A program made the translations under genes and the position numbers. The notes under the pieces are model-generated. The model made no database searches. It was given only the letters and a program-made list of their open reading frames with translations, and was not told the DNA's origin. A stretch of 29,152 bases of DNA from an uncultured delta proteobacterium (GTDB taxonomy: Bacteria > Desulfobacterota > Binatia > Binatales > Binataceae): the NCBI GenBank assembly GCA_963765675.1, contig CAVXXK010000016.1, forward strand, positions 1 through 29,152, in the 5' to 3' direction. How positions within the stretch are numbered: position 1 is the first letter of the stretch; each line of letters opens with the position of its first letter. Below are positions 677 to 17,236 of this stretch, one piece after another.

Positions 677-2986
677 CTACCGTCTTAAAGCGGAGCTATC
701 CCGCGCAACCGCGATCGCGGCCTGTCCGAGACTGACCCCGCCGTCGTTGGTTGGAACATTGTGATGGGTGAGCGTGCGAAAGCCTTGTTCCTTGAGCGTA
801 CGCACCGTCCGGTTCAAGAGAAGCATATTCTGAAAGACGCCGCCGCTCAGTGCTACCGTGTTATGTCCGGTGCGCGAGCGAACAATCCGGCACGTATCGG
901 CGATCATTTGTGCCAGCGTGTTGTGAAATCGAGCGGCAATTATTCCGATTGACACATTGTCGCGAAGATCTTCGACAACGGCACGGATCAGATCGGTTCC
1001 GCGCGGCAGCAACGCTTCGCCCGGATCGATATCGATCTCGTAGGAGGACGACTCGGACGCGATCGCATGCTGCTCAAGCTCGACTGCGGCCTGGCCTTCG
1101 TAGTCGATCGAATCGCGAATACCGAGTATCGCCGCAACCGCATCGAACAGCCGCCCCACGCTTGAGGTTGCCGGCGAATTAATTGGCGCACGAGCAAGCT
1201 GTACCACCTTGCGCCAGCGCATGGAATTGCGCTGAAACACCTCCAACCATTCGGGAATGGAATCGCCGAAAAGCAGATCAAGGTAGGCGGCCGCCATCCG
1301 CCACGGCTGTTTGATTGCGGCGGCGCCGCCAGGCATCAAAACGTTCTCGAAATGGCCAAGTCGCTTGAAGCATTTTAGATCGGCAACAAGAAACTCACCG
1401 CCCCAAAATGTCGAATCGATCCCATAGCCGAGTCCGTCCAGGGCTACCCCTATCGCAGGACCCCGCTCCTGATTGTCGGCCAGGCATGACGCGACGTGCG
1501 CGTGGTGATGCTGAATGCCGATCAGTTGGACACCCTCGAGCTCCATGGCGTACTTGGTGGAGAGATATTCAGGATGCAGATCATGCGCGACTACCTGCGG
1601 TTCGATTCCGAACAGGCTGCGAAAATGATCGATGCCATCGACGTAGGCCCGCAAGGTTTCGTAGTTTTCCAGATCGCCAATGTGATGCGACACAAAGGCA
1701 CGGTTGCCCTTCACCAGACAAAAAGTGCTTTTCAATTCGGCGCCGCAGGCAAGAACCGGGCGGCGGGCACTGAGCGGTGTCAGCAGCGGCTGAGGCGCAT
1801 AGCCGCGCGACCGGCGAATCGGATACTCCTGCCCGCGAACCAGTCGAATGACAGAATCATCGGTGCGGATGTGAATTGGTCGGTCGTGGATCAGGAAGCA
1901 ATCCGCAATAGCGCCCAGCCGCTCAGCGGCGTCGGCGTCGAGGTAAGCGATCGGTTCGTCGGAAACGTTTCCGCTGGTGAGTACGAGCGGTCGGGCGAGT
2001 TCCGCACACAGCAGATGATGGATCGGCGTATACGGCAGCATGAGGCCGATATCGCGATTGGCCGGGGCTACCGACGCCGCAAGATTTGTGTCCGCGACGC
2101 GGTGCAGAAGCACGATCGGCCGCCGCGCACCCGTTATCGATTGTTCTTCGACGCTATCGATTTCGGCTAGTTCACGTGCCGCGGCTATATCGCGCACCAT
2201 GACCGCGAACGGCTTGTGCTCGCGATACTTACGCCCGCGTAGCTCGGCGACCGTGCTTTCATTAGTGGCGTCTGCCGCAAGATGGAATCCGCCAAGTCCC
2301 TTGACCGCAACTATCTGCCCAGATCGCAATCGATCAGCGGCAGCCCGAATCGGATCTCCGGCAACGGAATTCCCGCCGCAATCGATCAGCCGTAACACCG
2401 GGCCGCATCGCGAACATGAGACAGGCTGCGCATGAAATCTCCGGTTCAGCGGATCGCTATATTCGCGAGCGCATTCGAGACACATCGCGAAGCGCGCCAT
2501 GGTGGTGAGCGGGCGGTCGTATGGCACACCAGTCACAATCGTGAAGCGCGGGCCGCAGTTGGTGCAGTTGTTGAACGGGTAGCGAAAGCGGCGATCACTG
2601 CGGGTAAAAATCTCTCGCACACAATCGTCGCAGGTGGCGATATCCGGTGCGACCAAAACTTCGCGATCGCCCGCGCCGTCGCTTTCGTTTATCTCGAACC
2701 GGCCTTCACCGGCCAAAGGGATCGCCAGGCTCTCGATAAGCTCTATAGCCGCGAGCGGCGGCGCTTCCGACTGCAATTTATCGATAAACTCGTAAAGTTG
2801 ATCCTGCGCTCCCTCGACTTCGATCACAACGCCGCGCGAATCGTTGCGTACAAAACCCGACAGCGCTATCCGCGAGGCCAGCGAATACACGAAGGGCCGA
2901 AAGCCGACTCCCTGCACGATACCGTCGAGGCGGATGCGCACGCGCGCTCGTCGATTGGCGCGCGCAGAATCGATTCCAGCGTCCAT
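677..2986 (-). CDS. hypF: Carbamoyltransferase HypF (full length)
   Basis: Acylphosphatase GIVQGVGFRPF, zinc fingers CDDC/CTNC/CLEC/CSRC, YrdC-like KGLGGFHL, and Kae1-like HDLHPEY, QHHHAH and NDGGVSLGQ. Confidence 0.98.
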   Translation of the reverse strand: MDAGIDSARANRRARVRIRLDGIVQGVGFRPFVYSLASRIALSGFVRNDSRGVVIEVEGAQDQLYEFIDKLQSEAPPLAAIELIESLAIPLAGEGRFEINESDGAGDREVLVAPDIATCDDCVREIFTRSDRRFRYPFNNCTNCGPRFTIVTGVPYDRPLTTMARFAMCLECAREYSDPLNRRFHAQPVSCSRCGPVLRLIDCGGNSVAGDPIRAAADRLRSGQIVAVKGLGGFHLAADATNESTVAELRGRKYREHKPFAVMVRDIAAARELAEIDSVEEQSITGARRPIVLLHRVADTNLAASVAPANRDIGLMLPYTPIHHLLCAELARPLVLTSGNVSDEPIAYLDADAAERLGAIADCFLIHDRPIHIRTDDSVIRLVRGQEYPIRRSRGYAPQPLLTPLSARRPVLACGAELKSTFCLVKGNRAFVSHHIGDLENYETLRAYVDGIDHFRSLFGIEPQVVAHDLHPEYLSTKYAMELEGVQLIGIQHHHAHVASCLADNQERGPAIGVALDGLGYGIDSTFWGGEFLVADLKCFKRLGHFENVLMPGGAAAIKQPWRMAAAYLDLLFGDSIPEWLEVFQRNSMRWRKVVQLARAPINSPATSSVGRLFDAVAAILGIRDSIDYEGQAAVELEQHAIASESSSYEIDIDPGEALLPRGTDLIRAVVEDLRDNVSIGIIAARFHNTLAQMIADTCRIVRSRTGHNTVALSGGVFQNMLLLNRTVRTLKEQGFRTLTHHNVPTNDGGVSLGQAAIAVARDSSALRR

Positions 2987-2991
2987 CGGCG

Positions 2992-3276
2992 TCAGCTCGA
3001 GGCCCGTAATTTCGGAGGAATCATCTCCGCAAGTGGTAGCACTTCGTACCGCGCGACGTTATAGACCGGCGACCGCGCGAGCAGCATATCCAACTCTTCG
3101 TTGGAGTCGACCTCGTATATCCAGGCGCCGCCATGCGCTCCCGGAATATGGTAGCGCGAGAGAACTTTGTGGCTTTTCTCCAGTGGCCCAGCGTAGTCGG
3201 CCATCTTGAGAACCGCATCGACGACGCCGCGCGACATCAGCGAAAGTTCGATTCGCCACATGACCAGGAATTTCAT
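2992..3276 (-). CDS. Muconolactone delta-isomerase-like / DUF3303-like small protein (dimeric alpha+beta barrel)
   Basis: MKFLVMW start, then G..GG..IYEVDSNEELDMLL..SP......EVLPL, a pattern typical of this superfamily. It lies 7 nt after the second hypC and 5 nt before hypF. Confidence 0.7.
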   Translation of the reverse strand: MKFLVMWRIELSLMSRGVVDAVLKMADYAGPLEKSHKVLSRYHIPGAHGGAWIYEVDSNEELDMLLARSPVYNVARYEVLPLAEMIPPKLRASS

Positions 3277-3283
3277 CGGCTTC

Positions 3284-3607
3284 CTATTCTTCCTCCGCTC
3301 CCGAATTCGAGCGTGTCATAAGCATTCTCTCCCAATCGAATTCGGTGTTCTCACTCGCGAGCCCGTCGTCATCCATAGGCGGACCGCCGGTATAGCGATT
3401 AAGCAGTTCCATTTGCGCTCGAGCGCGCTCCTCGTCGATGCGCTCGATCGCGAATCCGGACTGAATCAGCACCCAGTCACCGACGGATGGCCGGTCCGCG
3501 AGAATTCCGAGGTTGATCTTGCGCGTAACATCGGCGACCTCGACCTCGCCAAGATCGCAATGTTCCGTCTCGATCGAAATGATTCGCCCCGGAATTCCCA
3601 GGCACAT
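3284..3607 (-). CDS. hypC: HypC/HupF family chaperone, second copy, with an acidic C-terminal tail
   Basis: Start re-set to the ATG at 3607 gives MCLGIPG. VGDWVLIQSGFAIERIDE has Gln at the usual His position. Confidence 0.88.
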   Translation of the reverse strand: MCLGIPGRIISIETEHCDLGEVEVADVTRKINLGILADRPSVGDWVLIQSGFAIERIDEERARAQMELLNRYTGGPPMDDDGLASENTEFDWERMLMTRSNSGAEEE

Positions 3608-3627: not shown

Positions 3628-4806
3628 TCAGCAGATGCGCGGCAACGGATCTCCGATCAACAGATCCAGAATTCGAGTACCGCCAAAGCATGTCTTCAGC
3701 AGCACAATCCCCACCGGGTCGGCTTTCACTCGGCCGATGATGCTCGCGCCGTCGCCATAGGGCCCGGAGCGAATCGCCGTTAGGACTGCTTGCGCGGATT
3801 CGTCGCCGACGATTGCTACCAGCCTGCCTTCGCAGGCGACGTGAAGCGGATCGATTCCCAGAAGTTCACACGCGCCGGCTACTTCTTCACGAATCGGCAC
3901 GGCGGATTCATCGATCATAATAGCGACTCCCGAAGCCGCCGCGATCTCGTTGAGTACGGTCGCGACGCCGCCCCTGGTCGCGTCACGCATGCATCGCGCC
4001 TGCGGTGCCGCATCGAGGATCCGCTCCACCAGCGCGGCCAGTGGCGCCGTATCCGATGCTATATCGGCTTCGATTTCAAGCTCACCGCGCGCCAGCATGA
4101 TCGTGATCCCGTGCTCCCCGATCGGCCCCGACACAATCACCGCGTCGCCGGGACGGCAGCTCGCGGCGCTGAGGCTCACCGGCCGGTCGATCACGCCGAC
4201 GCCCGAGGTGTTGATGTAGCAGCCGTCGCCTTTCCCTCTTTGCACCACCTTGGTGTCGCCGGTGACGATTTGCATGCCGGCGGCCTGTGCCGCGGATTTC
4301 ATCGAGGTGACGATGCGGCTCAGATCACTAATCGGAAATCCTTCTTCGAGAATGAATCCTGCCGACAAGTAGAGCGGGCGGGCTCCGCCCACCGCGAGGT
4401 CGTTCACCGTTCCGTTTACCGCGAGGTCGCCGATATTTCCGCCAGGAAAAAACAGGGGCGAGACTACGAACGAATCTGTGGTAAAGGCGAGCCGTGCGTC
4501 CCCCACGTGCAGCACCGCTTGATCTTCCATCGCCTCCAGGATCGGATTGCGAAAGCCTTCGAGGAACATCGCCTCGATTAGCGAGTGCGTCGCTTTGCCG
4601 CCGGCTCCGTGTGCGAGCGTGATACGGTCCTCACGGATGCGTGCTTTCCTGGTCCTGGCACCCTCAAGCCGCGCAAGCACGTCGCGCTCCGTGATGCTAC
4701 GTAAATCGTTGGCGGCGTGGTTATGATTCGCGCAGTTTTCGCGAATCGCGTCTTCGGCTCGATCGCCAGACAGAGGATTCGCATCGATGGTGTTTAGCTT
4801 TTGCAT
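3628..4806 (-). CDS. hypE: Carbamoyl dehydratase HypE
   Basis: LAHGAGG, FTTDSFVV, GDTKVV, MRDATRGG and C-terminal LPRIC. The exact start is uncertain because of an N-terminal extension. Confidence 0.97.
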   Translation of the reverse strand: MQKLNTIDANPLSGDRAEDAIRENCANHNHAANDLRSITERDVLARLEGARTRKARIREDRITLAHGAGGKATHSLIEAMFLEGFRNPILEAMEDQAVLHVGDARLAFTTDSFVVSPLFFPGGNIGDLAVNGTVNDLAVGGARPLYLSAGFILEEGFPISDLSRIVTSMKSAAQAAGMQIVTGDTKVVQRGKGDGCYINTSGVGVIDRPVSLSAASCRPGDAVIVSGPIGEHGITIMLARGELEIEADIASDTAPLAALVERILDAAPQARCMRDATRGGVATVLNEIAAASGVAIMIDESAVPIREEVAGACELLGIDPLHVACEGRLVAIVGDESAQAVLTAIRSGPYGDGASIIGRVKADPVGIVLLKTCFGGTRILDLLIGDPLPRIC

Positions 4807-5948
4807 CGTGCGTCAACCGGGTTCGTACCATTCGCGGCGTCGCGAATTCTCTCGCGGGTAAACCGGCCGTAGTTGTAGTACGCGGCACACGCGCCTTCCG
4901 ACGACACCATGCAGCTGCCGATCGGCGTTTCAGGGGTGCATGCGGTTCCGAACACCTTACACTGCCACGGCTTCAACACGCCTTTGAGGACCTCACCACA
5001 CTGGCATGCCTTCGGATCGGCGATGCGCACTCCCGGCAACGCAAAAATTCGCTCGGCGTCATACTCGGCGTAGGCCGCCCGCAACGTGAGCGCTGAATAC
5101 GAGATAAAACCGAGGCCGCGCCACTCGAAGAACGGCCGCAGCTCCATGGTCTCGCTCAAAGCTTTGAGCGCGCGGGAATTGCCGTCCCAGTTCACGGCGC
5201 GCGTGTACTGATTTTCAACTTCAACGCGCCCGTCCGTTATCTGTTTGAGGATCATGTAAATCGATTGCAAGATGTCGAGCGGCTCGAATCCGCCGACCAC
5301 GATCGGTTTGCCATAGTTGCGCGAGATGAATTCATAAGGACGGCATCCGATTATCGTCGACACGTGACCGGGCCCAATAAAGCCGCTGAGCCGCAGGTCG
5401 GGCGAATCGAGGATCGCCTTGATCGCCGGAATGATAGTCACGTGATTGCAGAAAATCGAAAAGTTTTCGATTCCCTCAGCTTTCGCGCGCAGTAGAGTGA
5501 CCGCGGTCGACGGCGCAGTGGTTTCGAAGCCGATCGCGAAGAACACCACGCGCTTATCCGGATTGCGTCGCGCGATACCGAGCGCGTCGAGCGGCGAATA
5601 GACGATCCGGATGTCCGCGCCGCGCGCCTTCGCGTCGAGAAACGATCCGCGTCCGCCTGGCACCCTCATCATGTCGCCGAACGACGTGAAAATCACATCT
5701 TTCTGCTCCGCGATAAAGATGGCATCGTCCAGACGGCCCATCGGGATCACGCAGACTGGGCATCCGGGGCCGTGAACCAGCGTGATATTTGCCGGCAGGT
5801 AATCTTCAAGTCCGTGCTTGTAGATGGTGTGAGTATGGCCGCCGCACACTTCCATGATTTGATAGGGCCGACTTCCCGCGACCTCCGCGATTTGGGCGGC
5901 CAGCCGGTGCGCCAGCGGCTCGGAACGGAATTCGTCGACAAATTTCAT
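4794..5948 (-). CDS. hypD: Hydrogenase maturation scaffold HypD
   Basis: MEVCGGHTH, GPGCPVCV, GFETTAP, PGHVS and C-terminal Fe-S cysteines including CMVSSEGAC. Confidence 0.98.
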   Translation of the reverse strand: MKFVDEFRSEPLAHRLAAQIAEVAGSRPYQIMEVCGGHTHTIYKHGLEDYLPANITLVHGPGCPVCVIPMGRLDDAIFIAEQKDVIFTSFGDMMRVPGGRGSFLDAKARGADIRIVYSPLDALGIARRNPDKRVVFFAIGFETTAPSTAVTLLRAKAEGIENFSIFCNHVTIIPAIKAILDSPDLRLSGFIGPGHVSTIIGCRPYEFISRNYGKPIVVGGFEPLDILQSIYMILKQITDGRVEVENQYTRAVNWDGNSRALKALSETMELRPFFEWRGLGFISYSALTLRAAYAEYDAERIFALPGVRIADPKACQCGEVLKGVLKPWQCKVFGTACTPETPIGSCMVSSEGACAAYYNYGRFTRERIRDAANGTNPVDARCKS

Positions 5949-6628
5949 CGTGCTTCACTCGCCGGGTCGAGAAACGCCTGCGTCACTTCCCAGAGCATGT
6001 GGTAGATGGTGGTTTGGACTTCCTGGATACGATGTACGGAGGGCGAGGGCACTATGAACAGGAAATCCACAGTGCCAGCTTCGGCCATCTTTCCGCCATC
6101 GTAACCGGCGCTTCCGATAGTCATCATTCCGCGGCGATTCGCTGCCTCGAAGGCATTGAGGAGGTTGCGGGAATTGCCACTCGTTGAAAGGCCGAGCGCG
6201 ATATCGCCGCGGCGCCCCAACGCAGAGAGTTGGCGCGCGAATACCATTTCGAATCCGATGTCGTTACCGAGCGCCGTGATTACGGCGATATCCGCCGCGA
6301 GCGAAATCGCCGGTAGCGGCAGCTCGCGCGCTGGATTAAGAAACAAATGCGTAACCGCGTGCGCGTCGGTCGCGCTGCCGCCATTGCCGAAGGAGAACAG
6401 CCGGGCGCCGGCGGCGAACGCATAGGCCATCGCTTCTCCGCAATCGAGCATCCGATCGGAGAGCGCCGCAATAGTGGATTCGCGAAGAGATACTATTTCG
6501 CGGGCCTTGTGCGCGGTCGAAGTGCCCACCTCGGCGAGAACCTTTTCAACGTCATCCGCTTTCGCGTAAAGGAACGGATACAGCTGCTCGAGCCCTCCCG
6601 CGCCGTCTTTTTCGCCATTGCCGCTCAT
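5945..6628 (-). CDS. SIS-domain GmhA (phosphoheptose isomerase)-like protein, copy A
   Basis: GNGGS, GNDIGF, LSTSGNS and RIQE..TIYH are present. The His/Glu of the DAxHxxxE motif are absent (DAHAVTHL). Confidence 0.9.
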   Translation of the reverse strand: MSGNGEKDGAGGLEQLYPFLYAKADDVEKVLAEVGTSTAHKAREIVSLRESTIAALSDRMLDCGEAMAYAFAAGARLFSFGNGGSATDAHAVTHLFLNPARELPLPAISLAADIAVITALGNDIGFEMVFARQLSALGRRGDIALGLSTSGNSRNLLNAFEAANRRGMMTIGSAGYDGGKMAEAGTVDFLFIVPSPSVHRIQEVQTTIYHMLWEVTQAFLDPASEAR

Positions 6629-6846
6629 TTGATCAGTTTTGCTATCGCTTCGCGCGCGTGCACCAGAATCGAATCGCCCGGACCTGCGTCGACCAGCGCG
6701 ACACTCACGACCTCGATTTCGTCGCCAATCTCCACCCGCGCGAGATCGTCATCGAGCATCTCGATCACACGAGCTTCGATCGCGACGTCCGAGCAGGTAA
6801 TGCATACCTGGTCGTGACATTCTGGCGTTTTCGGAACCGCACGCAT
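6625..6846 (-). CDS. Atypical HypC/HupF-like OB-fold protein with a CITC motif
   Basis: ATG at 6846 with GAGG upstream. CHDQVCITCSD...VSVALVDAGPGDSILVHA resembles the HypC core but lacks the N-terminal Met-Cys. Confidence 0.8.
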   Translation of the reverse strand: MRAVPKTPECHDQVCITCSDVAIEARVIEMLDDDLARVEIGDEIEVVSVALVDAGPGDSILVHAREAIAKLIK

Positions 6847-6862
6847 CAGTTTAAGAACCTCA

Positions 6863-7504
6863 TTAGGCGAAGCTGGGGCCGAAAACACCCGGATGCTCGA
6901 AGAACACATGAACTAGCTCCCACAAGATGTGGTAGGTCGTCACCTGAATTTCCTTCGCGATCATCCGGTTGTCAGAATGTGCGATGAATTCGAAATCGAT
7001 CGCCGACCCGCCGCCGGGATGCTCGCTGGCGGTCATCGCGATCGTCAGAAGATTCCGCTCCTGCGCCGCCTGCAGGGCGCGCAGGACGCTTGCCGACAGT
7101 CCGCCCGAATCGATGCCAAGGGCGATATCCTCGGGCGCAGCAAGATGGTGGAGCTGATGCACGAACGCATCGTCGAAGCCGCGCGCGCTCGCGACACCGG
7201 TGATCGTGGCGACGTCGTTAGTGAGTGCGATCGCGGGAAGTGTACGTTTGCCGACGATCACCGGATGAAGGAATTCCACGGCGACGTGTTGTGCGTCGGT
7301 GCTCGATGAACCGGCGCCGAATACGATCAGCTTGCCACCGCGATGAAATCGTTCGGACATCGCATGGCACGCGCGGGCCACCCGTTCCGCATCGCGCGTG
7401 AGCAAACGACCGGCCTCAGATCGGCACGCGAGCGAACGGATCAGGCGTGCGCGCGCCGCGTCGCGGCTGTCAGTGCTCGCTCTCTGATAGAGAATGCTCG
7501 CCAC
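6863..7504 (-). CDS. SIS-domain GmhA-like protein, copy B
   Basis: GGKLIVFGAGSSSTDAQHVAVEF, LPAIAL, DIALGI and KEIQVTTYHILWE. The GTG start overlaps the hypC stop. Confidence 0.88.
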   Translation of the reverse strand: MASILYQRASTDSRDAARARLIRSLACRSEAGRLLTRDAERVARACHAMSERFHRGGKLIVFGAGSSSTDAQHVAVEFLHPVIVGKRTLPAIALTNDVATITGVASARGFDDAFVHQLHHLAAPEDIALGIDSGGLSASVLRALQAAQERNLLTIAMTASEHPGGGSAIDFEFIAHSDNRMIAKEIQVTTYHILWELVHVFFEHPGVFGPSFA

Positions 7505-7782
7505 TAGGCAATCTCGCTTTTCTCGAGGGCGCGAAGCTCGTCCGAATACGCGCTGTCCATTCCGTTTAGGAGCTTGAGCGTGGCCTCGGCTTCCTGTTCA
7601 TCGATTTTGCAGAGCGCGAACCCAACGTGAATCAGCACCCAGTCGCCGACCTGTACCGGGGAGGATTGGTCCTCGAGCAGTTGAATCGAAACGTTGCGCC
7701 TTACGCGGCCGACTTCGGCCTTGGCGATCGCCCGGTCGGCGTCGACGATTTCGATTATTTTCCCCGGTATTCCAAGGCACAT
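7504..7782 (-). CDS. hypC: Hydrogenase chaperone HypC (canonical copy)
   Basis: Start re-set to the ATG at 7782 (AGGAG RBS). MCLGIPG...VGDWVLIHVGFA. Confidence 0.95.
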   Translation of the reverse strand: MCLGIPGKIIEIVDADRAIAKAEVGRVRRNVSIQLLEDQSSPVQVGDWVLIHVGFALCKIDEQEAEATLKLLNGMDSAYSDELRALEKSEIA

Positions 7783-8004: not shown

Positions 8005-8493
8005 TTAGCCTGAAGAAACGGAAACGCTAGCCATCCGTCCTTCAACAATTTCGCGCACTGCGCGGATCGCGTTAGGAATCGCGCGGCTCACAGGTTCGGA
8101 CAATCCTATTTTCTCGCCGAGGTCGGCGGGCTCGCATCCGACTATCAGAACACGCGGCGGCATGCTGTTTCCCAGCGTGCGAACCATAGCGAATACGTTA
8201 TCGAGAGCCATGTCGTGCGAGTCGGAAACGGCGCCGCATCTGACGCCTTCAAGATCCGGTTCGATGACGTAAATAGTTCCGGGCGCGGCACCGCGAGAAA
8301 CCGTATCGACAATGATCACCAGGTCATAGCCGGCGATAAGCTCGTAAGCGAGATGAACTCCGCGAATGCCGAAATCCGTGACGCTGACATCTGTGGACCA
8401 CATTTCGCAGGCGAGACGGCGCGCCACCTCGACACCGAATCCGTCGTCGCCAAGAAAAATATTACCCACGCCGGCGATCAGCACTCGATTCAT
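8005..8493 (-). CDS. Hydrogenase maturation endopeptidase (HupD/HybD/HycI family)
   Basis: GVGNIFLGDDGFG, IIVD, PGTIY, DSH, GCEP and GLSEPV. Confidence 0.95.
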   Translation of the reverse strand: MNRVLIAGVGNIFLGDDGFGVEVARRLACEMWSTDVSVTDFGIRGVHLAYELIAGYDLVIIVDTVSRGAAPGTIYVIEPDLEGVRCGAVSDSHDMALDNVFAMVRTLGNSMPPRVLIVGCEPADLGEKIGLSEPVSRAIPNAIRAVREIVEGRMASVSVSSG

Positions 8494-9821
8494 GTGGTGC
8501 TCTCCGTGAGCGGTTCGACCTCATCGGGCGAGAAATACAGATAACGCCCCTGCGCTTGATAGAGATCAGCGCCCGGATCGTCCTCGAGCGTTACGGCGAC
8601 GTAGTTGCGATTCTCGACATCCAGGAAAACGCCTTCCACCATGCCGACGCGGCCCTCCAGAAACATGTCTTGCGCATCGGCGCGGCGCGCTCCCGGACAT
8701 AAGCGCACGCGACACCCCTTGCGCACTGACACGCCATTAACCTCGACGCTGTCGGTTTCGGGCGACACCGAGGAGTCGGCGCCCGGATCCCACCAAGGCG
8801 CATCGGTAGAAGGCGGCGGCGAGCCCACTGAGCGCAGGGCTCCATGCAACTTGTCGAGCATCTCGGGCGGCATCGCATCGGCGCGTTCGATAATCGCCGC
8901 AGCTCTTTCGTCAGTGGCGCGCGCTTCGCGCTTTTCTTCATCCGTGAGCGTCATGGTGCGAAGCGTGAGAATTTCATCGATCTCGGTCCCATCGAACAGG
9001 TCGCCGGGGCTCTCCGGGGCAATCGCCGGATAGTCCTGAAGAATGATCGGTGACGACAGGAGCATGTCACGGGTGCCGCTTTCGCCAACCAGCACCGGCC
9101 AGGTGCGGACGTTGGAGCATTGCGCGGAGGCCGCACGCGCATACTCAGGCGGATCGGTGAGCGATACGAAATTCCCATCCGTTACCGCCAGCAGCGTATG
9201 CGCCCCGATAAATGAGCCGCGCAACGCTTCGTCGCGTCCCGATTCGATTTCGGGCCACGGAGTCTCGTTCTCGATTCTGATGGTCAGCTTGACGAGTCGA
9301 TCGCCGACGGCAACCGTCGCAAGCCGAATCACGCCGTTCAGAGCGACCATCTCTCTAACGATTCGTGCGACAATGACCCCGCGCAAATTTCCTATCGGTT
9401 CGATGGCAAGCGCGACAGGGAATTCGAAATGAATTTCACGTTCCGGGGCGTCTGTGCTGATCGGAAATTCGAAACCCACCTCTCGCTCGATTCCCTCATC
9501 CCACGAGGCAAACAGCTTTCCATCGATATCGACCGATTCCACTGCTCGGAATGAATCACCGTCGGCTTCTTCAACCGTTCGATGTTGCATCTGGAGAAAA
9601 CGAACGTTTCCGGAGACCCGCGCGTCCGGATGGGCCTCGGCGATGCATTCGGTGCTCATCCACCACTGCTCGCATCCGCCTGACTCGCTCCACTGACGCG
9701 GCGCCAGCAGGCCGAACTGGAAACGCAAACGATTCTTGCGGGCGGAGGCTCGATATGGATACAGGACGTATCCTTCATAGAGCACAGCGTCGGCGATCTT
9801 CTTAGCGCTCTCGAAGCTCAT
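8490..9821 (-). CDS. Conserved group 1h hydrogenase accessory protein (positional HhaC equivalent)
   Basis: ADAVLYEGYVLYPYR, LSSPIILQDYPAIAPESPGDLFDGTEIDEILTLR, LTDEEK; in the conserved position in the operon. Confidence 0.8.
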   Translation of the reverse strand: MSFESAKKIADAVLYEGYVLYPYRASARKNRLRFQFGLLAPRQWSESGGCEQWWMSTECIAEAHPDARVSGNVRFLQMQHRTVEEADGDSFRAVESVDIDGKLFASWDEGIEREVGFEFPISTDAPEREIHFEFPVALAIEPIGNLRGVIVARIVREMVALNGVIRLATVAVGDRLVKLTIRIENETPWPEIESGRDEALRGSFIGAHTLLAVTDGNFVSLTDPPEYARAASAQCSNVRTWPVLVGESGTRDMLLSSPIILQDYPAIAPESPGDLFDGTEIDEILTLRTMTLTDEEKREARATDERAAAIIERADAMPPEMLDKLHGALRSVGSPPPSTDAPWWDPGADSSVSPETDSVEVNGVSVRKGCRVRLCPGARRADAQDMFLEGRVGMVEGVFLDVENRNYVAVTLEDDPGADLYQAQGRYLYFSPDEVEPLTESTT

Positions 9822-12099: not shown

Positions 12100-13869
12100 T
12101 CACACGGTGTGAATCATCGACGGCGAATGGATTTGCTTAAGCACCCGGCCGTGACCCAGATGCATATGGACGCCGCACGGCAGACATGGATCGAAGCTAC
12201 GCACGGTGCGCATAATATCGATTCCCCGGAAAGCCGGACCGGGTCCGTTGTCCTCGAAAATCGGCGTGTTCTGCACTGCGTCTTCGTAAGGGCCGGGAAC
12301 GCCATGCGAATCGCGCGGACTCGCGTTCCACGGAGTCGGGGGATACGGATGGTAGTTCGCGATCTTCCCGTCCCGGATAACCATGTGATGAGAGAGCACA
12401 CCACGCACCGCCTCGGTGAACCCGCATCCGATTCCGTCCCGTGGAACCTTGAACTCATTCCAGGTCTTGGTGCGTCCTTGGCGGACTTCCTTCAGTCCCT
12501 GCTCGACGAAGTACAGCGCAGCCGCAGCGGCGTAGGCCTGGAAATAAGTGCGCGCGCGATCGCGCTCGATGGTGTTGCTCCACTTCGGAATTTTCCATTC
12601 CAGCGTAACCGGCCCTTTGGTCGCGGACTTGGGGAAATTGAATACCACGCTGTTGCCGGTGGATTTCACGTATCCAATATCGACCAGCTTCGCCAAAGCC
12701 GTCGCCCATAGGCGCGCGAGCGGGCCGCCGCCGGTGTCGAGGGGAAGATCGTCCTTTCCGTCGTTCCATCGCGGCGACATGACCCACGTGTATTTGTCGC
12801 CTAGCTGGCGCTTCTGCGGCCTCGGTATGGTGTGCTGATTCCACGGATGGCGCGGGTCGACCCTGTTGCCCAGCGGATCCTCGCGCACGAACATCTCCTT
12901 GCCTTCCCAGTCCTCGTAGTAAGAGCTGCCGAGCAGGATTCTGATTCCCAGGTTGATCTTGACCAGGTCGTTGGTGACCAGTTTGCCGTCGACCACCACG
13001 CCCGGCGTTACGAACATGTGCCGGCCCCATTCGGTCATGTCGCGATAGTTAAAGTTGCATACGTTGGGATCCTGAAATGCGCCCCAGCATCCGAGCAGTA
13101 TCCGCCGGTTTCCAACTTGCTCGTAGCCGGGCATCGCCTCGTAAAAGAAATCGAAGAGGTCATCGTGCATCGGAACCGCACGCTTCACGAATTCGACGTA
13201 GCGCATCAAACGCGACAGGTAATCGGTAAGCAGCTGCACCGATGGCACCGTGCCGACACCTCCCGGATACAGGGTCGAGGGATGAACGTGGCGGCCTTCC
13301 ATCAGGCAGAACATTTCACGCGTGTAACGGCTCGTCTGGAGCGCTTCGCGATAGAAGTCTCCCTCGAGCGGATTGACCGCTTTCATGATGTCGCCGATGG
13401 TTCGGTAGCCGTGGTCCGCGGCATGCGGAGCCTCGGTCTTGGCGGCTTTTTCCCAGACCCCCGGATTCGTCGCGCGGACCATTTTCTCGCAAAAATCTAC
13501 CGCGACCAGGTTTTCCTGGAAGATGCAGTGATCGAACATATACTCGGCGGCTTCCCCGAGGTTGACAATCCATTCGCCGAGATGCGGCGGTTGCACGCCA
13601 TACGCCATGTTCTGGCAGTAACAGGAACAAGTGGCGTGATTGTCGCCGCAGATTCCGCATATGCGGCTGGTGATGAAGTGGGCATCGCGTGGATCCTTGC
13701 CCTGCATGAAGATGCTATAGCCACGAAACACCGACGAGGTGCTATAGCATTCGGCAACTCTCCGGTTGGAGAAATCGATCTTAGTATAGATTCCGAGACT
13801 GCCCACGATGCGGGTGATCGGATCCCAGTTCATCTCGACCAGATTGCCTTGAGTTGAGGCAGCACTCAT
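12100..13869 (-). CDS. hhyL: Group 1h [NiFe]-hydrogenase large subunit
   Basis: WDPITRIVGSLG, L1 motif TSRICGICGDNH, L2 motif SFDPCLPCGVH followed by a cleavable C-terminal tail. Start re-set to the ATG at 13869 (GGAGG/GAGG RBS). Confidence 0.96.
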   Translation of the reverse strand: MSAASTQGNLVEMNWDPITRIVGSLGIYTKIDFSNRRVAECYSTSSVFRGYSIFMQGKDPRDAHFITSRICGICGDNHATCSCYCQNMAYGVQPPHLGEWIVNLGEAAEYMFDHCIFQENLVAVDFCEKMVRATNPGVWEKAAKTEAPHAADHGYRTIGDIMKAVNPLEGDFYREALQTSRYTREMFCLMEGRHVHPSTLYPGGVGTVPSVQLLTDYLSRLMRYVEFVKRAVPMHDDLFDFFYEAMPGYEQVGNRRILLGCWGAFQDPNVCNFNYRDMTEWGRHMFVTPGVVVDGKLVTNDLVKINLGIRILLGSSYYEDWEGKEMFVREDPLGNRVDPRHPWNQHTIPRPQKRQLGDKYTWVMSPRWNDGKDDLPLDTGGGPLARLWATALAKLVDIGYVKSTGNSVVFNFPKSATKGPVTLEWKIPKWSNTIERDRARTYFQAYAAAAALYFVEQGLKEVRQGRTKTWNEFKVPRDGIGCGFTEAVRGVLSHHMVIRDGKIANYHPYPPTPWNASPRDSHGVPGPYEDAVQNTPIFEDNGPGPAFRGIDIMRTVRSFDPCLPCGVHMHLGHGRVLKQIHSPSMIHTV

Positions 13870-13963
13870 CCTCGAAACCTCCAACGAAATTGGGGCCTGC
13901 GCCCCCCGGACCATGTGGCATACTGGTCGCGGGTCGTGACTGGTTGTTAAGACCTAAAGATCA

Positions 13964-15010
13964 CTATTCCGCGTACCAGCGCGGCCTATATCCGGTGCGC
14001 AACTGCTGGCCCGGCCTGCGCCACTTCGGCTCCTTGTTGAGAGTGTGCTGAGTAAGGCTGCGGAGCGACCGAATCAGGGCGCCATAGCCGCTGATCAAAG
14101 CGCTGGAAAGCTTGCCGCCTGGTGGCTCATCCATGAACGGCATGAATTTATCGGGGAATCCCGGCATGGTGCATCCGATACAGATTCCTCCCACATTGGG
14201 GCATCCGCCGATCCCACCCATCCATCCCCGTTTCGGCACGTTGCAGTTAACGACTGGGCCCCAGCACCCGATCTTCACTAGACATTTTTGCGAACCGTAC
14301 GCCTTGCCAAAATCGCCCTGCTCGTAATAGCCGGCGCGATCGCATCCCTCATGGACAGTCTGTTCGAACAGCCATTTCGGACGATGCTCCTTGTCGAGAG
14401 GAATCATCGGTGCCTGCCCCGCTGCCTGGTAGAGCAGGTATGCGATAGTCTCCGAAAGGTTATCAGGCTGAATCGGACATCCGGGCACACATACGATGGG
14501 AATTCCCGCGTGTGATTTCCAATCCCACCCGAGATAGTCGAGCACTCCCATTGCACCGGTCGGATTATTCGACATCGCATGGATTCCGCCGTACGTGGCG
14601 CAAGTGCCGACCGCCAGCACCAGCAAAGCCTTCGGAGCCAGGCGATCGATCCATTCGCTGGTGGTGATCGGTTGCCCGGTCGCTGGGTCGTTGCCGAAGC
14701 CCGACCAGTATCCCTCTTTTTTTATCTTCTCGTTGGGGATCGATCCCTCGATCACGAGCACGAACGGATTGATTTCTCCGCGTGCGCCCTTAAAGAACCA
14801 TTCGATGAAATCATCATTGCTGCCGACCGGGCCTGTCTCGGGCGCGATCAGCGGCCAATGGACATCGACCTTGGGGAGGCCCGGCAACGTGCCGAGCACG
14901 ATATCCTCAATGCTGGGTTGCATGGCCGCGGTCAGCGCGACGGAATCACCGTCACAACTCAGACCCGCGTTGATCCAGAGAACGTGAACGACGGTTTCTT
15001 TGTCGGGCAT
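13964..15010 (-). CDS. hhyS: Group 1h [NiFe]-hydrogenase small subunit
   Basis: LSCDGDSV (CxxD proximal ligand pattern), GTCATYGG, PGCP, VHEGCDR, CLVKIGCWGP, CPNVGGICIGC; no Tat signal peptide. Confidence 0.96.
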   Translation of the reverse strand: MPDKETVVHVLWINAGLSCDGDSVALTAAMQPSIEDIVLGTLPGLPKVDVHWPLIAPETGPVGSNDDFIEWFFKGARGEINPFVLVIEGSIPNEKIKKEGYWSGFGNDPATGQPITTSEWIDRLAPKALLVLAVGTCATYGGIHAMSNNPTGAMGVLDYLGWDWKSHAGIPIVCVPGCPIQPDNLSETIAYLLYQAAGQAPMIPLDKEHRPKWLFEQTVHEGCDRAGYYEQGDFGKAYGSQKCLVKIGCWGPVVNCNVPKRGWMGGIGGCPNVGGICIGCTMPGFPDKFMPFMDEPPGGKLSSALISGYGALIRSLRSLTQHTLNKEPKWRRPGQQLRTGYRPRWYAE

Positions 15011-15515: not shown

Positions 15516-16250
15516 ATGCGGTCGCGTCCTGCCCGAATTCTCTTATCAGAGGCGCCCGGCCCGTCCGCCGAGGCCATGAAGACCAGATTGATCAAGCGAG
15601 GATATCTGGTTGCGTGTAGCGGTTGTGACGAGGCACCTGAGACGCTTGATAGTCTGCGTCCGAACCTCGCAATCGTCAGGGTAGACCCGCTGAAGCCTCA
15701 CGATGCGACCGGGAATATCGAGGAGATCGGCGGACGGTTGGATGTGCCGGCAGTTTTCCTAGGGACACCCGCTGATCTAGCGCTTGTACGGCCCGTTAAG
15801 GGCTCGAATTTCTATGGATATCTACTGGAGCCGTTCGACGACTTGGAGCTGGACTTGGTCCTCGAGACCGCGCTTGACCGCCATCGAACCGAACGAAATC
15901 TTCGCGAGAGTGAGCAATGGCTAAGGGCGATTCTGCGCAGTATTGGACACGGTGTGGTCGCGACTGACGCCGCGTGGCGAGTGCGGTTTATCAATCCTGC
16001 CGCCGAAGAGCTCACCGGATGGATTGCGGACGAGGCAATTGGCCGTGCCCTTTCGGAAGTCGTGTCGGTGTCGATCTCAGCTCCGGAATTGATCCGCGGC
16101 GGCCGAGCGCAGGGTGTGTTGCACCATCGCGCTGGAAAAGAGGTCCCAATCGAGGAAAGCAGCACCACGATTCGCAATGAGGAGGGGAAGGTGATCGGCT
16201 CGGTGATTGCGATCGGCGCGGTGGCCGAGCCCTCACGCAACTGCAAATGA
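15516..16250 (+). CDS. Pseudo-receiver (REC-like) + coiled coil + PAS protein with no output domain
   Basis: REC-like N-terminus (RILLSE...GY.V...RPNLAIVRVD...VPAVFLG...YGYLLEPF), linker LRESEQWL, PAS SIGHGVVATD...FINPAAEELTGW...IRNEEGKVIG. Confidence 0.85.
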   Translation: MRSRPARILLSEAPGPSAEAMKTRLIKRGYLVACSGCDEAPETLDSLRPNLAIVRVDPLKPHDATGNIEEIGGRLDVPAVFLGTPADLALVRPVKGSNFYGYLLEPFDDLELDLVLETALDRHRTERNLRESEQWLRAILRSIGHGVVATDAAWRVRFINPAAEELTGWIADEAIGRALSEVVSVSISAPELIRGGRAQGVLHHRAGKEVPIEESSTTIRNEEGKVIGSVIAIGAVAEPSRNCK

Positions 16251-16261
16251 AATGGAAATTT

Positions 16262-17236
16262 CTATTGCTTGGACCTTATCTCACTGCGCAGCCGGCGATA
16301 GACCGTGGAGCGGTGGATTCCAAGGCGGCGCGCCGTTTCGGATACGTTGTGCTGGCTGGCGTCGAAAACCGCCTTCAGCGCGACGATCGCCCCATCGCTG
16401 GGATTGCTGCCTGAATCATTTTCGCTGCGCTTGATTCCCCTCGCGAGCTGAGTGCGATGCCACAACTCGGACGGAAGATCGGCAGGCATCAGTCGATCGC
16501 GCGATGAAACCAGAATAGTCCTGAGCAGGACGTTGCGCAGCTCGCGCGCATTACCCGGCCAAGGATAGGGACAGGACTCGAGCGCCTGCCACACCCCGTC
16601 GTCCACTTCGCCCAGGTAATGCAATTCCTCGCGCAGGCATTTTTCCGCTATTGGCCGGATGTCCTGGCGACGGTCGCGCAGCGCCGCAATTTCGATCGAG
16701 AGGCAATTGAGGCGGTAGATCAAATCGGAGCGGATCCGGCCGTCGCTCAATTCCTCGATTGGAATGTTGGTCGCGACCACCACCCGTACCCCGCAATGGA
16801 CTTGTTGGGTGCCTCCAACGCGAACAAAACGGCCGGTTTCCAAAAACCGCAGCAACACGCTTTGAGGGGTAGGTGGCAGATCTTGAAATTCGTCGAGGAA
16901 CAGCGTGCCTTCCCGCGCAGCGTCGAAAAACCCTTGATGGGCGTGTCGGTCGGCGCCGGTGAACGATCCCGGTTCATATCCGCACAGCTCCGGAATCGCT
17001 ATTTCTCCGCATAGCATTCCGCAATTCACGGCGACGAATGGACCGCGGCGGCGCGCGCTCGCGTTGTGGATCGCGTGGGCGATCAATTCCTTACCGGTCC
17101 CTGACTCGCCTACCAGCACCACCGGGTAGTCGGCCCGCGCGGCGTGGTGCGCAAGCTCGATGGTTTGGCGCAGTTGCCTGCTGACACCCAGGATGTCGTT
17201 GAAAGTGTAACGTGCGGTCCAAGCCTCGGTATTCAT
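16262..17236 (-). CDS. Sigma54-dependent enhancer-binding activator (AAA+ plus Fis HTH) lacking an N-terminal sensory domain
   Basis: Walker A GESGTGKE, GSFTGA loop, Walker B LFLDE, RSDLIYRLN, WPGNARELRN, HTH NVSETARRLGIHRSTVYRRL; the AAA+ domain starts about 10 aa from the N-terminus. Confidence 0.95.
   Translation of the reverse strand: MNTEAWTARYTFNDILGVSRQLRQTIELAHHAARADYPVVLVGESGTGKELIAHAIHNASARRRGPFVAVNCGMLCGEIAIPELCGYEPGSFTGADRHAHQGFFDAAREGTLFLDEFQDLPPTPQSVLLRFLETGRFVRVGGTQQVHCGVRVVVATNIPIEELSDGRIRSDLIYRLNCLSIEIAALRDRRQDIRPIAEKCLREELHYLGEVDDGVWQALESCPYPWPGNARELRNVLLRTILVSSRDRLMPADLPSELWHRTQLARGIKRSENDSGSNPSDGAIVALKAVFDASQHNVSETARRLGIHRSTVYRRLRSEIRSKQ

Follow-up and report, generated by a model that had tools for sequence, protein, structure and literature searches.

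Two GmhA-like proteins with complementary half sites in a [NiFe]-hydrogenase maturation cluster are predicted to form an obligate heteromer

The isomerase GmhA builds its active sites across subunits. In published GmhA structures, one subunit provides His61, Glu65, and the C-terminal His, and its neighbor provides Gln (PMC5387315, PMC4697000); a homology model of M. tuberculosis GmhA has the phosphate-binding Asn, Gly, Ser, and Thr on the Gln-bearing monomer (PMC7705670). Each site also draws residues from a third chain (PMC11056994), and GmhA shows half-site behavior, with just one site of each pair being productive (PMC5705639). Papers also note undivided SIS genes in group 1h/2a hydrogenase operons, where they are listed as gmhA. 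Here, we analyzed a window of 29,152 nucleotides (the whole stretch of DNA under study, from an assembly, G000, that is 95.6% complete) with two GmhA-like genes, copy A and copy B, in its hydrogenase cluster. The original prediction, made from the sequence, was that A and B carry complementary half sites and form an obligate heteromer that works in cofactor assembly. We found that comparison with related proteins strongly supports the heteromer and that gene context supports the role.

Both predicted open reading frames were found on the minus strand (Table 1). A and B are 37% identical over 169 residues, each matches Pfam SIS_2, and GmhA and DiaA chains are the best PDB relatives of both. Both fall under the cut-off of the gmhA family TIGR00441 (136 bits for A and 96 bits for B; cut-off, 209) and score 97 and 62 bits against the DiaA family NF008138 (cut-off, 352). 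Positions written as 61, 65, and so on follow E. coli GmhA numbering, in part as given in PMC4697000. Copy A retains GNGGS (residues 81 to 85), D88, N122-D123, STSGNS (148 to 153), and Q202-E203, and its phosphate-pocket set is N82, S85, N122-D123, S148-T149-S150, S153, and Q202. At the positions of His61 and Glu65, A has Ala91 and Leu95. Copy B retains the ligand residues listed in Table 1 and has SA for ND, DSGGLS for STSGNS, and Lys184 for Gln. The two halves had thus been read correctly: A has the sugar-phosphate motifs and Gln and lacks the His and Glu of DAxHxxxE, and B has that His, that Glu, and the C-terminal His and has lost GNGGS, ND, STSGNS, and Gln. We rejected the accompanying caveat, that shifted His residues of A (H90 and H94) might act as alternative metal ligands, because these positions are not conserved in the A family. 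The DAHAVTH form occurs in just 2/80 A sequences, one of which (L001) is 100% identical to the A of the window; the commonest form, in a tally of the 12 commonest, is DAQDLASLF (36/80).

The same division recurs in related loci. A scan of GTDB genomes with A as the query gave 242 loci, of which we kept the best 80. These are not independent, since L001 duplicates the window and Amycolatopsis contributes many of the others. In the other loci (L002 to L080), B lies upstream of A in 78/79, the lone exception beginning at a contig edge, and a small third gene, here called Cx, lies between B and A in 69/79. The cassette moves as a unit and is found next to hypC/hypD, next to the small subunit gene, or by itself. 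To the domains of these loci, we added those from 40 Actinomycetota regions, from plasmid loci, and from the top 150 library representatives; domains of <160 residues and five distant hits were left out. When domains were classed as A or B by profile score and not by the scored residues, although the profiles include those columns, 155/163 A domains had the pocket set only and 174/187 B domains had the metal set only. Both sets together were found in 0/163 A and 0/187 B domains, so no domain of either class has H61, E65, Q172, H180, and the loops that GmhA has in one chain. His61 is present in 0/163 A and 183/187 B domains, and Asp94 is present in 161/163 A and 1/187 B domains. Gln172 is kept in 159/163 A domains, and 120 B domains have Lys or Arg there. 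The channel residue Asp58 is kept on both sides (158/163 A and 182/187 B), and His68 is found in 186/187 B domains. An alignment of 46 A sequences has 58 invariant columns, and one of 67 B sequences has 30. The original prediction had named conservation of the reciprocal losses as a check, and the losses are conserved. Because they reappear in the related loci and proteins that we examined, we consider the split to be far beyond chance.

Three side observations belong here. The motif LYPFL at residues 16 to 21 of A (window region 6565 to 6582, minus strand) is present in 151/163 A domains and 6/12 undivided domains, is found in 0 B domains and 0 canonical GmhA sequences, and lies C-terminally in P0246; it is a possible docking peptide. 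Eight Pseudonocardiaceae-type loci (L024, L045, L050, L053, L055, L061, L064, and L073) have B and A without Cx and without hyp genes nearby. In five other actinobacterial loci (L139 to L141, L144, and L145), a GmhA-like domain is C-terminal in frames of 440 to 480 amino acids, forms its own branch, and has His/Gln changes near the C-terminal His.

We found undivided forms that keep both halves. Six proteobacterial plasmid clusters have one SIS gene directly before hypD, with all residues retained: Cupriavidus necator pHG1 (H16_RS31885, between hypC and hypD) and plasmids of Bradyrhizobium, Mesorhizobium, Afipia, Methylocystis, and Sphingopyxis. Three further undivided genes lie beside hypD in relatives of G000 (L082 to L084). 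Both halves are present in 12/12 undivided hydrogenase-family domains, and His68 is present in 11/12. The pHG1 protein, at 148 bits, is also under the TIGR00441 cut-off. Three residues past the Glu, B and the undivided forms share a His-Pro in place of the Asn-Arg of canonical GmhA.

The halves are also commonly joined in single chains. Among the loci, we found 31 B-A fusions and 1 B-Cx-A fusion, and among the 150 library representatives, we found 46 and 9, respectively. B always precedes A, and the A-B order was found 0 times. Examples of B-A fusions are L066 (422 amino acids), a Thermus plasmid protein (392 amino acids), and 29/40 inspected Actinomycetota regions; in L108, L136, and L138, B is fused to Cx and A is separate. 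In the Thermus plasmid cluster, a glutaredoxin-like gene (L105:10644-10904) directly follows the fused B-A gene, and glutaredoxin is also marked in acidobacterial clusters (PMC5900883).

In a tree of 68 rows (a random subset, with a quick search, a midpoint root, and Shimodaira-Hasegawa-like approximate likelihood ratio support without bootstrap), A (98) and B (99) each formed a group, canonical GmhA was separate (98), and the undivided forms lay in between. Because the tree, the undivided forms, and the fusions look as expected for one duplication followed by complementary loss, A and B appear to be two halves of one duplicated GmhA-fold gene; the direction of change is our inference. A model of the natural B-Cx-A fusion P0134 was confident (mean predicted local distance difference test score, 89; predicted template modeling score, 0.84) and matched GmhA chains, and its fold fits packed SIS domains.

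The division of residues between A and B also fits the division between GmhA subunits, because B carries the first monomer's ligands, with Gln and the phosphate loops on A. Taken together, the undivided forms keep both halves, the split forms never do, the fusions join B to A, and the split matches the subunits. Because of this agreement, we judge it very probable, from comparison of sequences, that A and B form an obligate heteromer. A predicted A2B2 assembly, or its fused equivalent, would rebuild a metal and sugar-phosphate active site. B would give the His/Glu/His ligands and a family-specific His, and A would give the phosphate pocket, Asp94, and Gln. We are about equally confident that the two supply the site in this complementary way, with one working site per A-B pair, which would be a hard-wired form of the half-site behavior of GmhA.

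The original prediction placed the pair between hypC and hypD with near-continuous coupling. Overlaps are indeed seen (1 base between hypC and B and ATGA at both Cx/A and A/hypD), but the order is hypC-B-Cx-A-hypD, and Cx had been missed: the 234-base gap between B and A contains it (6625 to 6846), with a start codon that we infer from an upstream GAGG and from homologues. Cx has the motif C-x4-C-x-T-C-S-D with three near-invariant cysteines, and it has the HypC His. It lacks the N-terminal Cys2 that HypC has after Met, and in B-Cx fusions it is internal. The predicted structure of Cx matched 3VYU, 3VYT, and 2Z1C (root mean square deviation, 1.2 to 1.4; E value, about 1e-3), and its top six matches were all HypC; in modeling, confidence is low at the Cys segment. 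In the loci with fused B-A (L110 to L135), Cx often stays in a hypC-Cx-hypD-hypE group, away from B-A. In L180, it accompanies hypD, and that genome yielded no A-like gene. Cx may act directly on HypD, since it stays near hypD when apart from B-A and since L180 has no A-like gene. Because a second canonical-type hypC follows hypE, the cluster has three HypC-fold genes.

We found that the family follows hydrogenase maturation genes. Hydrogenase or hyp genes were present in the fetched flanks of 121/135 family loci, and among B-A loci without such neighbors, 6/6 tested genomes carry a 1h-type large subunit elsewhere. Of 301 sampled Actinomycetota genomes, 75 matched the B profile and 46 were scored as carrying the module. 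For 32 of these, the call came from inspection of the region, and for 10, it came from a very strong B score, with the region inspected afterward (G041 is L004). The remaining 4 (G225 and G275, whose regions were later seen, and the unpublished G098 and G170) were kept outside the strict count. Of the weaker B-profile matches, the six that we read were of canonical type, and 24 single weak ones were scored as no module unread. In the strict count, which sets six genomes aside, hypD was present in 39/42 module genomes versus 116/253 others. HypD of the window's type (65 to 80% identity) was found in 46 genomes, 42 of which have the module (40/44 minus the two unpublished genomes, which bear on none of our other claims). 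Other HypD types were found in 113 genomes, with the module only in G275, a frameshifted cluster. The window-type HypD clade includes the proteobacterial undivided loci (97 support). The clade has 22 diagnostic positions, e.g., S147-T148, N168, L270-R271, F274, K313, and Q316, which are a candidate docking surface.

In M. smegmatis, MSMEG_2706 gmhA is listed as induced along with neighboring hyp and hydrogenase genes (a table in PMC5445863). PMC6883350 mentions neither gmhA nor hypX. In the open literature, we found no function, activity, substrate, metal data, split-site description, or mutant for the family; subscription papers, theses, and supplements lay outside that search and may bear on it. 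Gene context and the co-occurrence with one HypD clade (42/46) support a role in hydrogenase cofactor assembly, as had been proposed. We consider it likely that the complex takes part in maturation and that Cx, with its cysteines, serves as a HypC-like adaptor toward HypD. A restriction of the family to group 1h was rejected, since nearby large subunits fall in three identity bands (73, 2, and 6 loci) and since G043 and G045 have only short large subunits (445 to 450 amino acids).

Several points weigh against this picture. The split is not clean everywhere: Gln is kept in 56/187 B domains, and the C-terminal His, which had been predicted as a feature of B, is present in B (H192) but is not B only, being found in A (H210) and in 147/163 A domains. 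Cx occurs in 0/9 undivided loci. The tethered P0134 may pack by likeness to solved GmhA oligomers, and its model was judged by confidence scores and fold matches. No A-like gene is found in 4/46 genomes with the window's HypD type, the undivided L082 to L084 sit beside another HypD clade, and the co-occurrence was counted across related genomes and may reflect a co-inherited gene cassette. The module is dispensable in many lineages. Two genomes with 1h clusters, G104 and G325, have no match to the A profile, and Frankia has group 1h syntons without gmhA (PMC11879354). With these points weighed, we regard an obligate A/B heteromer serving the HypC-HypD scaffold in cofactor assembly as the best overall explanation and as probable. 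We lean only slightly toward the further claim that the complex is a catalyst, beyond a mere binder, and would convert a phosphorylated ketose or aldose at its metal via an enediolate.

A different role for the same heteromer, also raised in the original prediction, would be that of a metabolite sensor or adaptor that binds a sugar phosphate and controls the HypCD scaffold according to carbon status. DiaA is a precedent for a GmhA relative that is not an isomerase, and glucokinase regulatory protein is a tandem-SIS sensor. DiaA is among the closest PDB relatives, the window has no downstream sugar enzymes, and several lineages do without the module. However, all GmhA catalytic positions, including the channel Asp, are kept in the undivided forms and in A and B taken together, whereas DiaA-like proteins lose the catalytic Glu (PMC4697000 and PMC7705670). 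We consider a sensor unlikely.

We find it improbable that the module is instead a metal-handling or protective scaffold, in which the His/Glu/His/Gln site, the extra His, and the Cx cysteines would hold Fe/Ni or Fe(CN)2CO and hand it to HypD or the large subunit while the phosphate pocket binds an effector, e.g., carbamoyl phosphate. The HypC fold of Cx, its near-invariant cysteines and HypC His, and the constancy of His68 would suit such a scaffold, and low model confidence in the Cys segment is expected of a metal-ordered loop. Against it, the undivided forms and some B-A loci do without Cx, Cx lacks Cys2 of HypC, and the full sugar-phosphate pocket, which a pure metal carrier would not need, is conserved.

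The pair might also be a conventional sedoheptulose-7-phosphate isomerase that serves heptose or glycan synthesis and travels with the hydrogenase cassette as a passenger. A and B together hold the full GmhA residue set, and we found no other GmhA in the whole G000 assembly, which has an HldE-kinase-like gene (311 bits, below the cut-off) and a weak GmhB match. In contrast, and as had been claimed, heptose-pathway genes are absent from the window (none among the 34 open reading frames scanned; related loci were not searched for them). Of the same-genus genomes, 10/10 have an HldE-like gene, yet no GmhA-like gene or hypD was found in these 10. The family is also below the TIGR00441 cut-off, has His-Pro for Asn-Arg, forms separate tree groups, and follows hyp genes across several phyla. 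We rejected a housekeeping heptose isomerase as very unlikely. It is scarcely credible that either copy, or both, is a decaying duplicate that functions independently or not at all, because, although each lacks residues essential in GmhA, B has long branches, and a few fusions (e.g., P0222 and P0249) have lost the pocket in both halves, the invariant columns, losses fixed across phyla, intact frames, and repeated fusion in one order have already largely refuted decay.

What a catalyst of this kind would make is a more speculative matter; the original prediction had raised the supply of a ligand precursor. In Hyp sets without HypX, the product might be CO or a one-carbon (C1) unit used to build Fe(CN)2CO, with the C1 unit passed through Cx to HypD. 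RibB and acireductone dioxygenase offer precedents for C1 release from a metal-bound sugar-phosphate enediolate. HypX itself makes the CO ligand under air from formyl-tetrahydrofolate, and the other source is described as unknown (PMC12134894). We found hypX in 0/135 family loci (partial flanks) and none in the whole G000 assembly, and the hyp clusters that we saw with hypX lacked the family (3/3). The two kinds of Hyp set occur together on pHG1, one with hypX but lacking an SIS gene and one with the SIS gene but lacking hypX. In the Actinomycetota sample, 39/42 module hosts lack hypX. Against a CO product, 3/42 module genomes have an unlinked hypX-like gene, 22/24 hypD+ coxA+ genomes without the module also lack hypX, and 11/39 module genomes lack coxA. 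Strict replacement of hypX at the genome level is unsupported, given those 3/42 genomes and since most of the others have neither. A strict tie to aerobic respiration was likewise rejected, since there is enrichment only (coxA in 28/39 module genomes with hypD versus 24/116 others). Among the 11 coxA-less genomes, 3 have another PF00115 member and 10 have a full-length cytochrome bd match, which does not discriminate, as the bd search covered these 11 only. We hold it doubtful, and speculative, that the B-Cx-A module or the undivided form is a HypX-independent CO-ligand synthase cleaving C1 from the enediolate. As a side observation, L173 to L178 are HypX-like genes (35 to 48% identity to pHG1 HypX) in five actinobacterial genomes, with no hyp or hydrogenase gene within the fetched 14 to 18 kb.

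Pfam and NCBIfam searches found the [NiFe]-hydrogenase cluster complete within the window, all on the minus strand, in the order hypA, hypB, small and large subunits, NifU/Rieske gene, DUF5947, DUF6084, 443-amino-acid protein, and maturation protease, followed by hypC, B, Cx, A, hypD, hypE, a further hypC, a small isomerase-fold gene, and hypF. The large subunit has HofG (5AA5, 1085 bits), of the group 1h type, as its best PDB match and shares 76% identity with its counterpart in the pHG1 cluster at 61 to 63 kb.

Table 1. Positions of the GmhA-like pair, Cx, and neighboring genes in the window
Feature	Position	Strand	Remarks
Copy B, GmhA-like SIS protein, metal-ligand half, 213 amino acids	6863..7504	-	Retains D70, H73, E77, H192; H80-P81 signature
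Cx, HypC-fold protein, 73 amino acids	6625..6846	-	Pfam HupF_HypC, E value 7e-8
Copy A, GmhA-like SIS protein, sugar-phosphate-pocket half, 227 amino acids	5945..6628	-	N-terminal LYPFL
hypC, canonical	7504..7782	-	Begins MCLG; stop overlaps B start
hypD	4794..5948	-	Member of the module-associated HypD clade; start overlaps A stop
hypE	3628..4806	-	Context
Second canonical-type hypC, after hypE	3284..3607	-	Context
hypF	677..2986	-	Context
Hydrogenase small and large subunit genes	12100..15010	-	Context

We noted further features of the cluster. A 94-amino-acid muconolactone-isomerase/DUF3303-like gene precedes hypF (2992 to 3276, minus strand); in 10 actinobacterial loci, a homologue is encoded on the strand of B, about 0.9 kb upstream of it, and the gene is possibly a further member of the module. 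The 443-amino-acid protein (8490 to 9821, minus strand) has no Pfam or NCBIfam match, and its homologues (40 to 60% identity, at times split in two) are kept in the 1h-type clusters examined. A 324-amino-acid sigma-54 activator without a sensor domain (16262 to 17236, minus strand) is coupled behind hypB, and a PAS-domain gene (15516 to 16250, plus strand) is convergent with it; the pair is a possible two-part regulator of the hydrogenase operon.

These results suggest that the gene annotated as gmhA in split systems is half an enzyme, whose partner is often labeled hypothetical or HypC. The family is a widespread Hyp accessory, here in a split form of three genes. The module would be a conserved, enzyme-like part of the Hyp sets that serve many group 1h hydrogenases and their relatives and a natural case in which duplication and complementary degeneration fix a half-site mechanism in genes. 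If CO is the product, many atmospheric-hydrogen oxidizers could build Fe(CN)2CO without HypX.

Among known systems, HypX shares only a possible niche with the module, as an extra gene in Hyp sets; its fold and substrate are unrelated. Cx shares the OB-type fold and conserved His of the HypC/HybG/HupF/HoxL chaperones, but it differs in lacking the N-terminal Cys2, in its three-cysteine extension, and in being often fused to B or placed between B and A. The tandem SIS domains of GlmS divide the labor at a shared site. The GlmS isomerase domain, with two SIS units dividing one active site, is a weaker structural match to the fusion model, at 8 to 13% identity, belongs to another SIS class, and implies no zinc-type His/Glu/His/Gln set. 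DiaA, a GmhA relative with no isomerase role, has the same fold but has lost catalytic residues in a single chain, whereas the losses in A and B are reciprocal and compensated by the partner. The undivided forms resemble the split module in their place beside hypC/hypD, their EFxHP signature, and their HypD clade (L082 to L084 excepted) and differ in having one gene with both halves and no Cx. GmhA (SIS_2, TIGR00441; PDB 2X3Y, 5I01, 1X92, and 2I22) has the same fold at about 30 to 45% identity, and A and B summed hold its whole set of zinc and phosphate residues. Unlike GmhA, the module is divided over two genes, scores below the family cut-off, has His-Pro for Asn-Arg after the Glu, carries LYPFL in A, and is linked to hyp genes and Cx. 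We concluded that B-Cx-A is a GmhA-like architecture and, by cut-off, single-chain completeness, and context, is not a member of GmhA.

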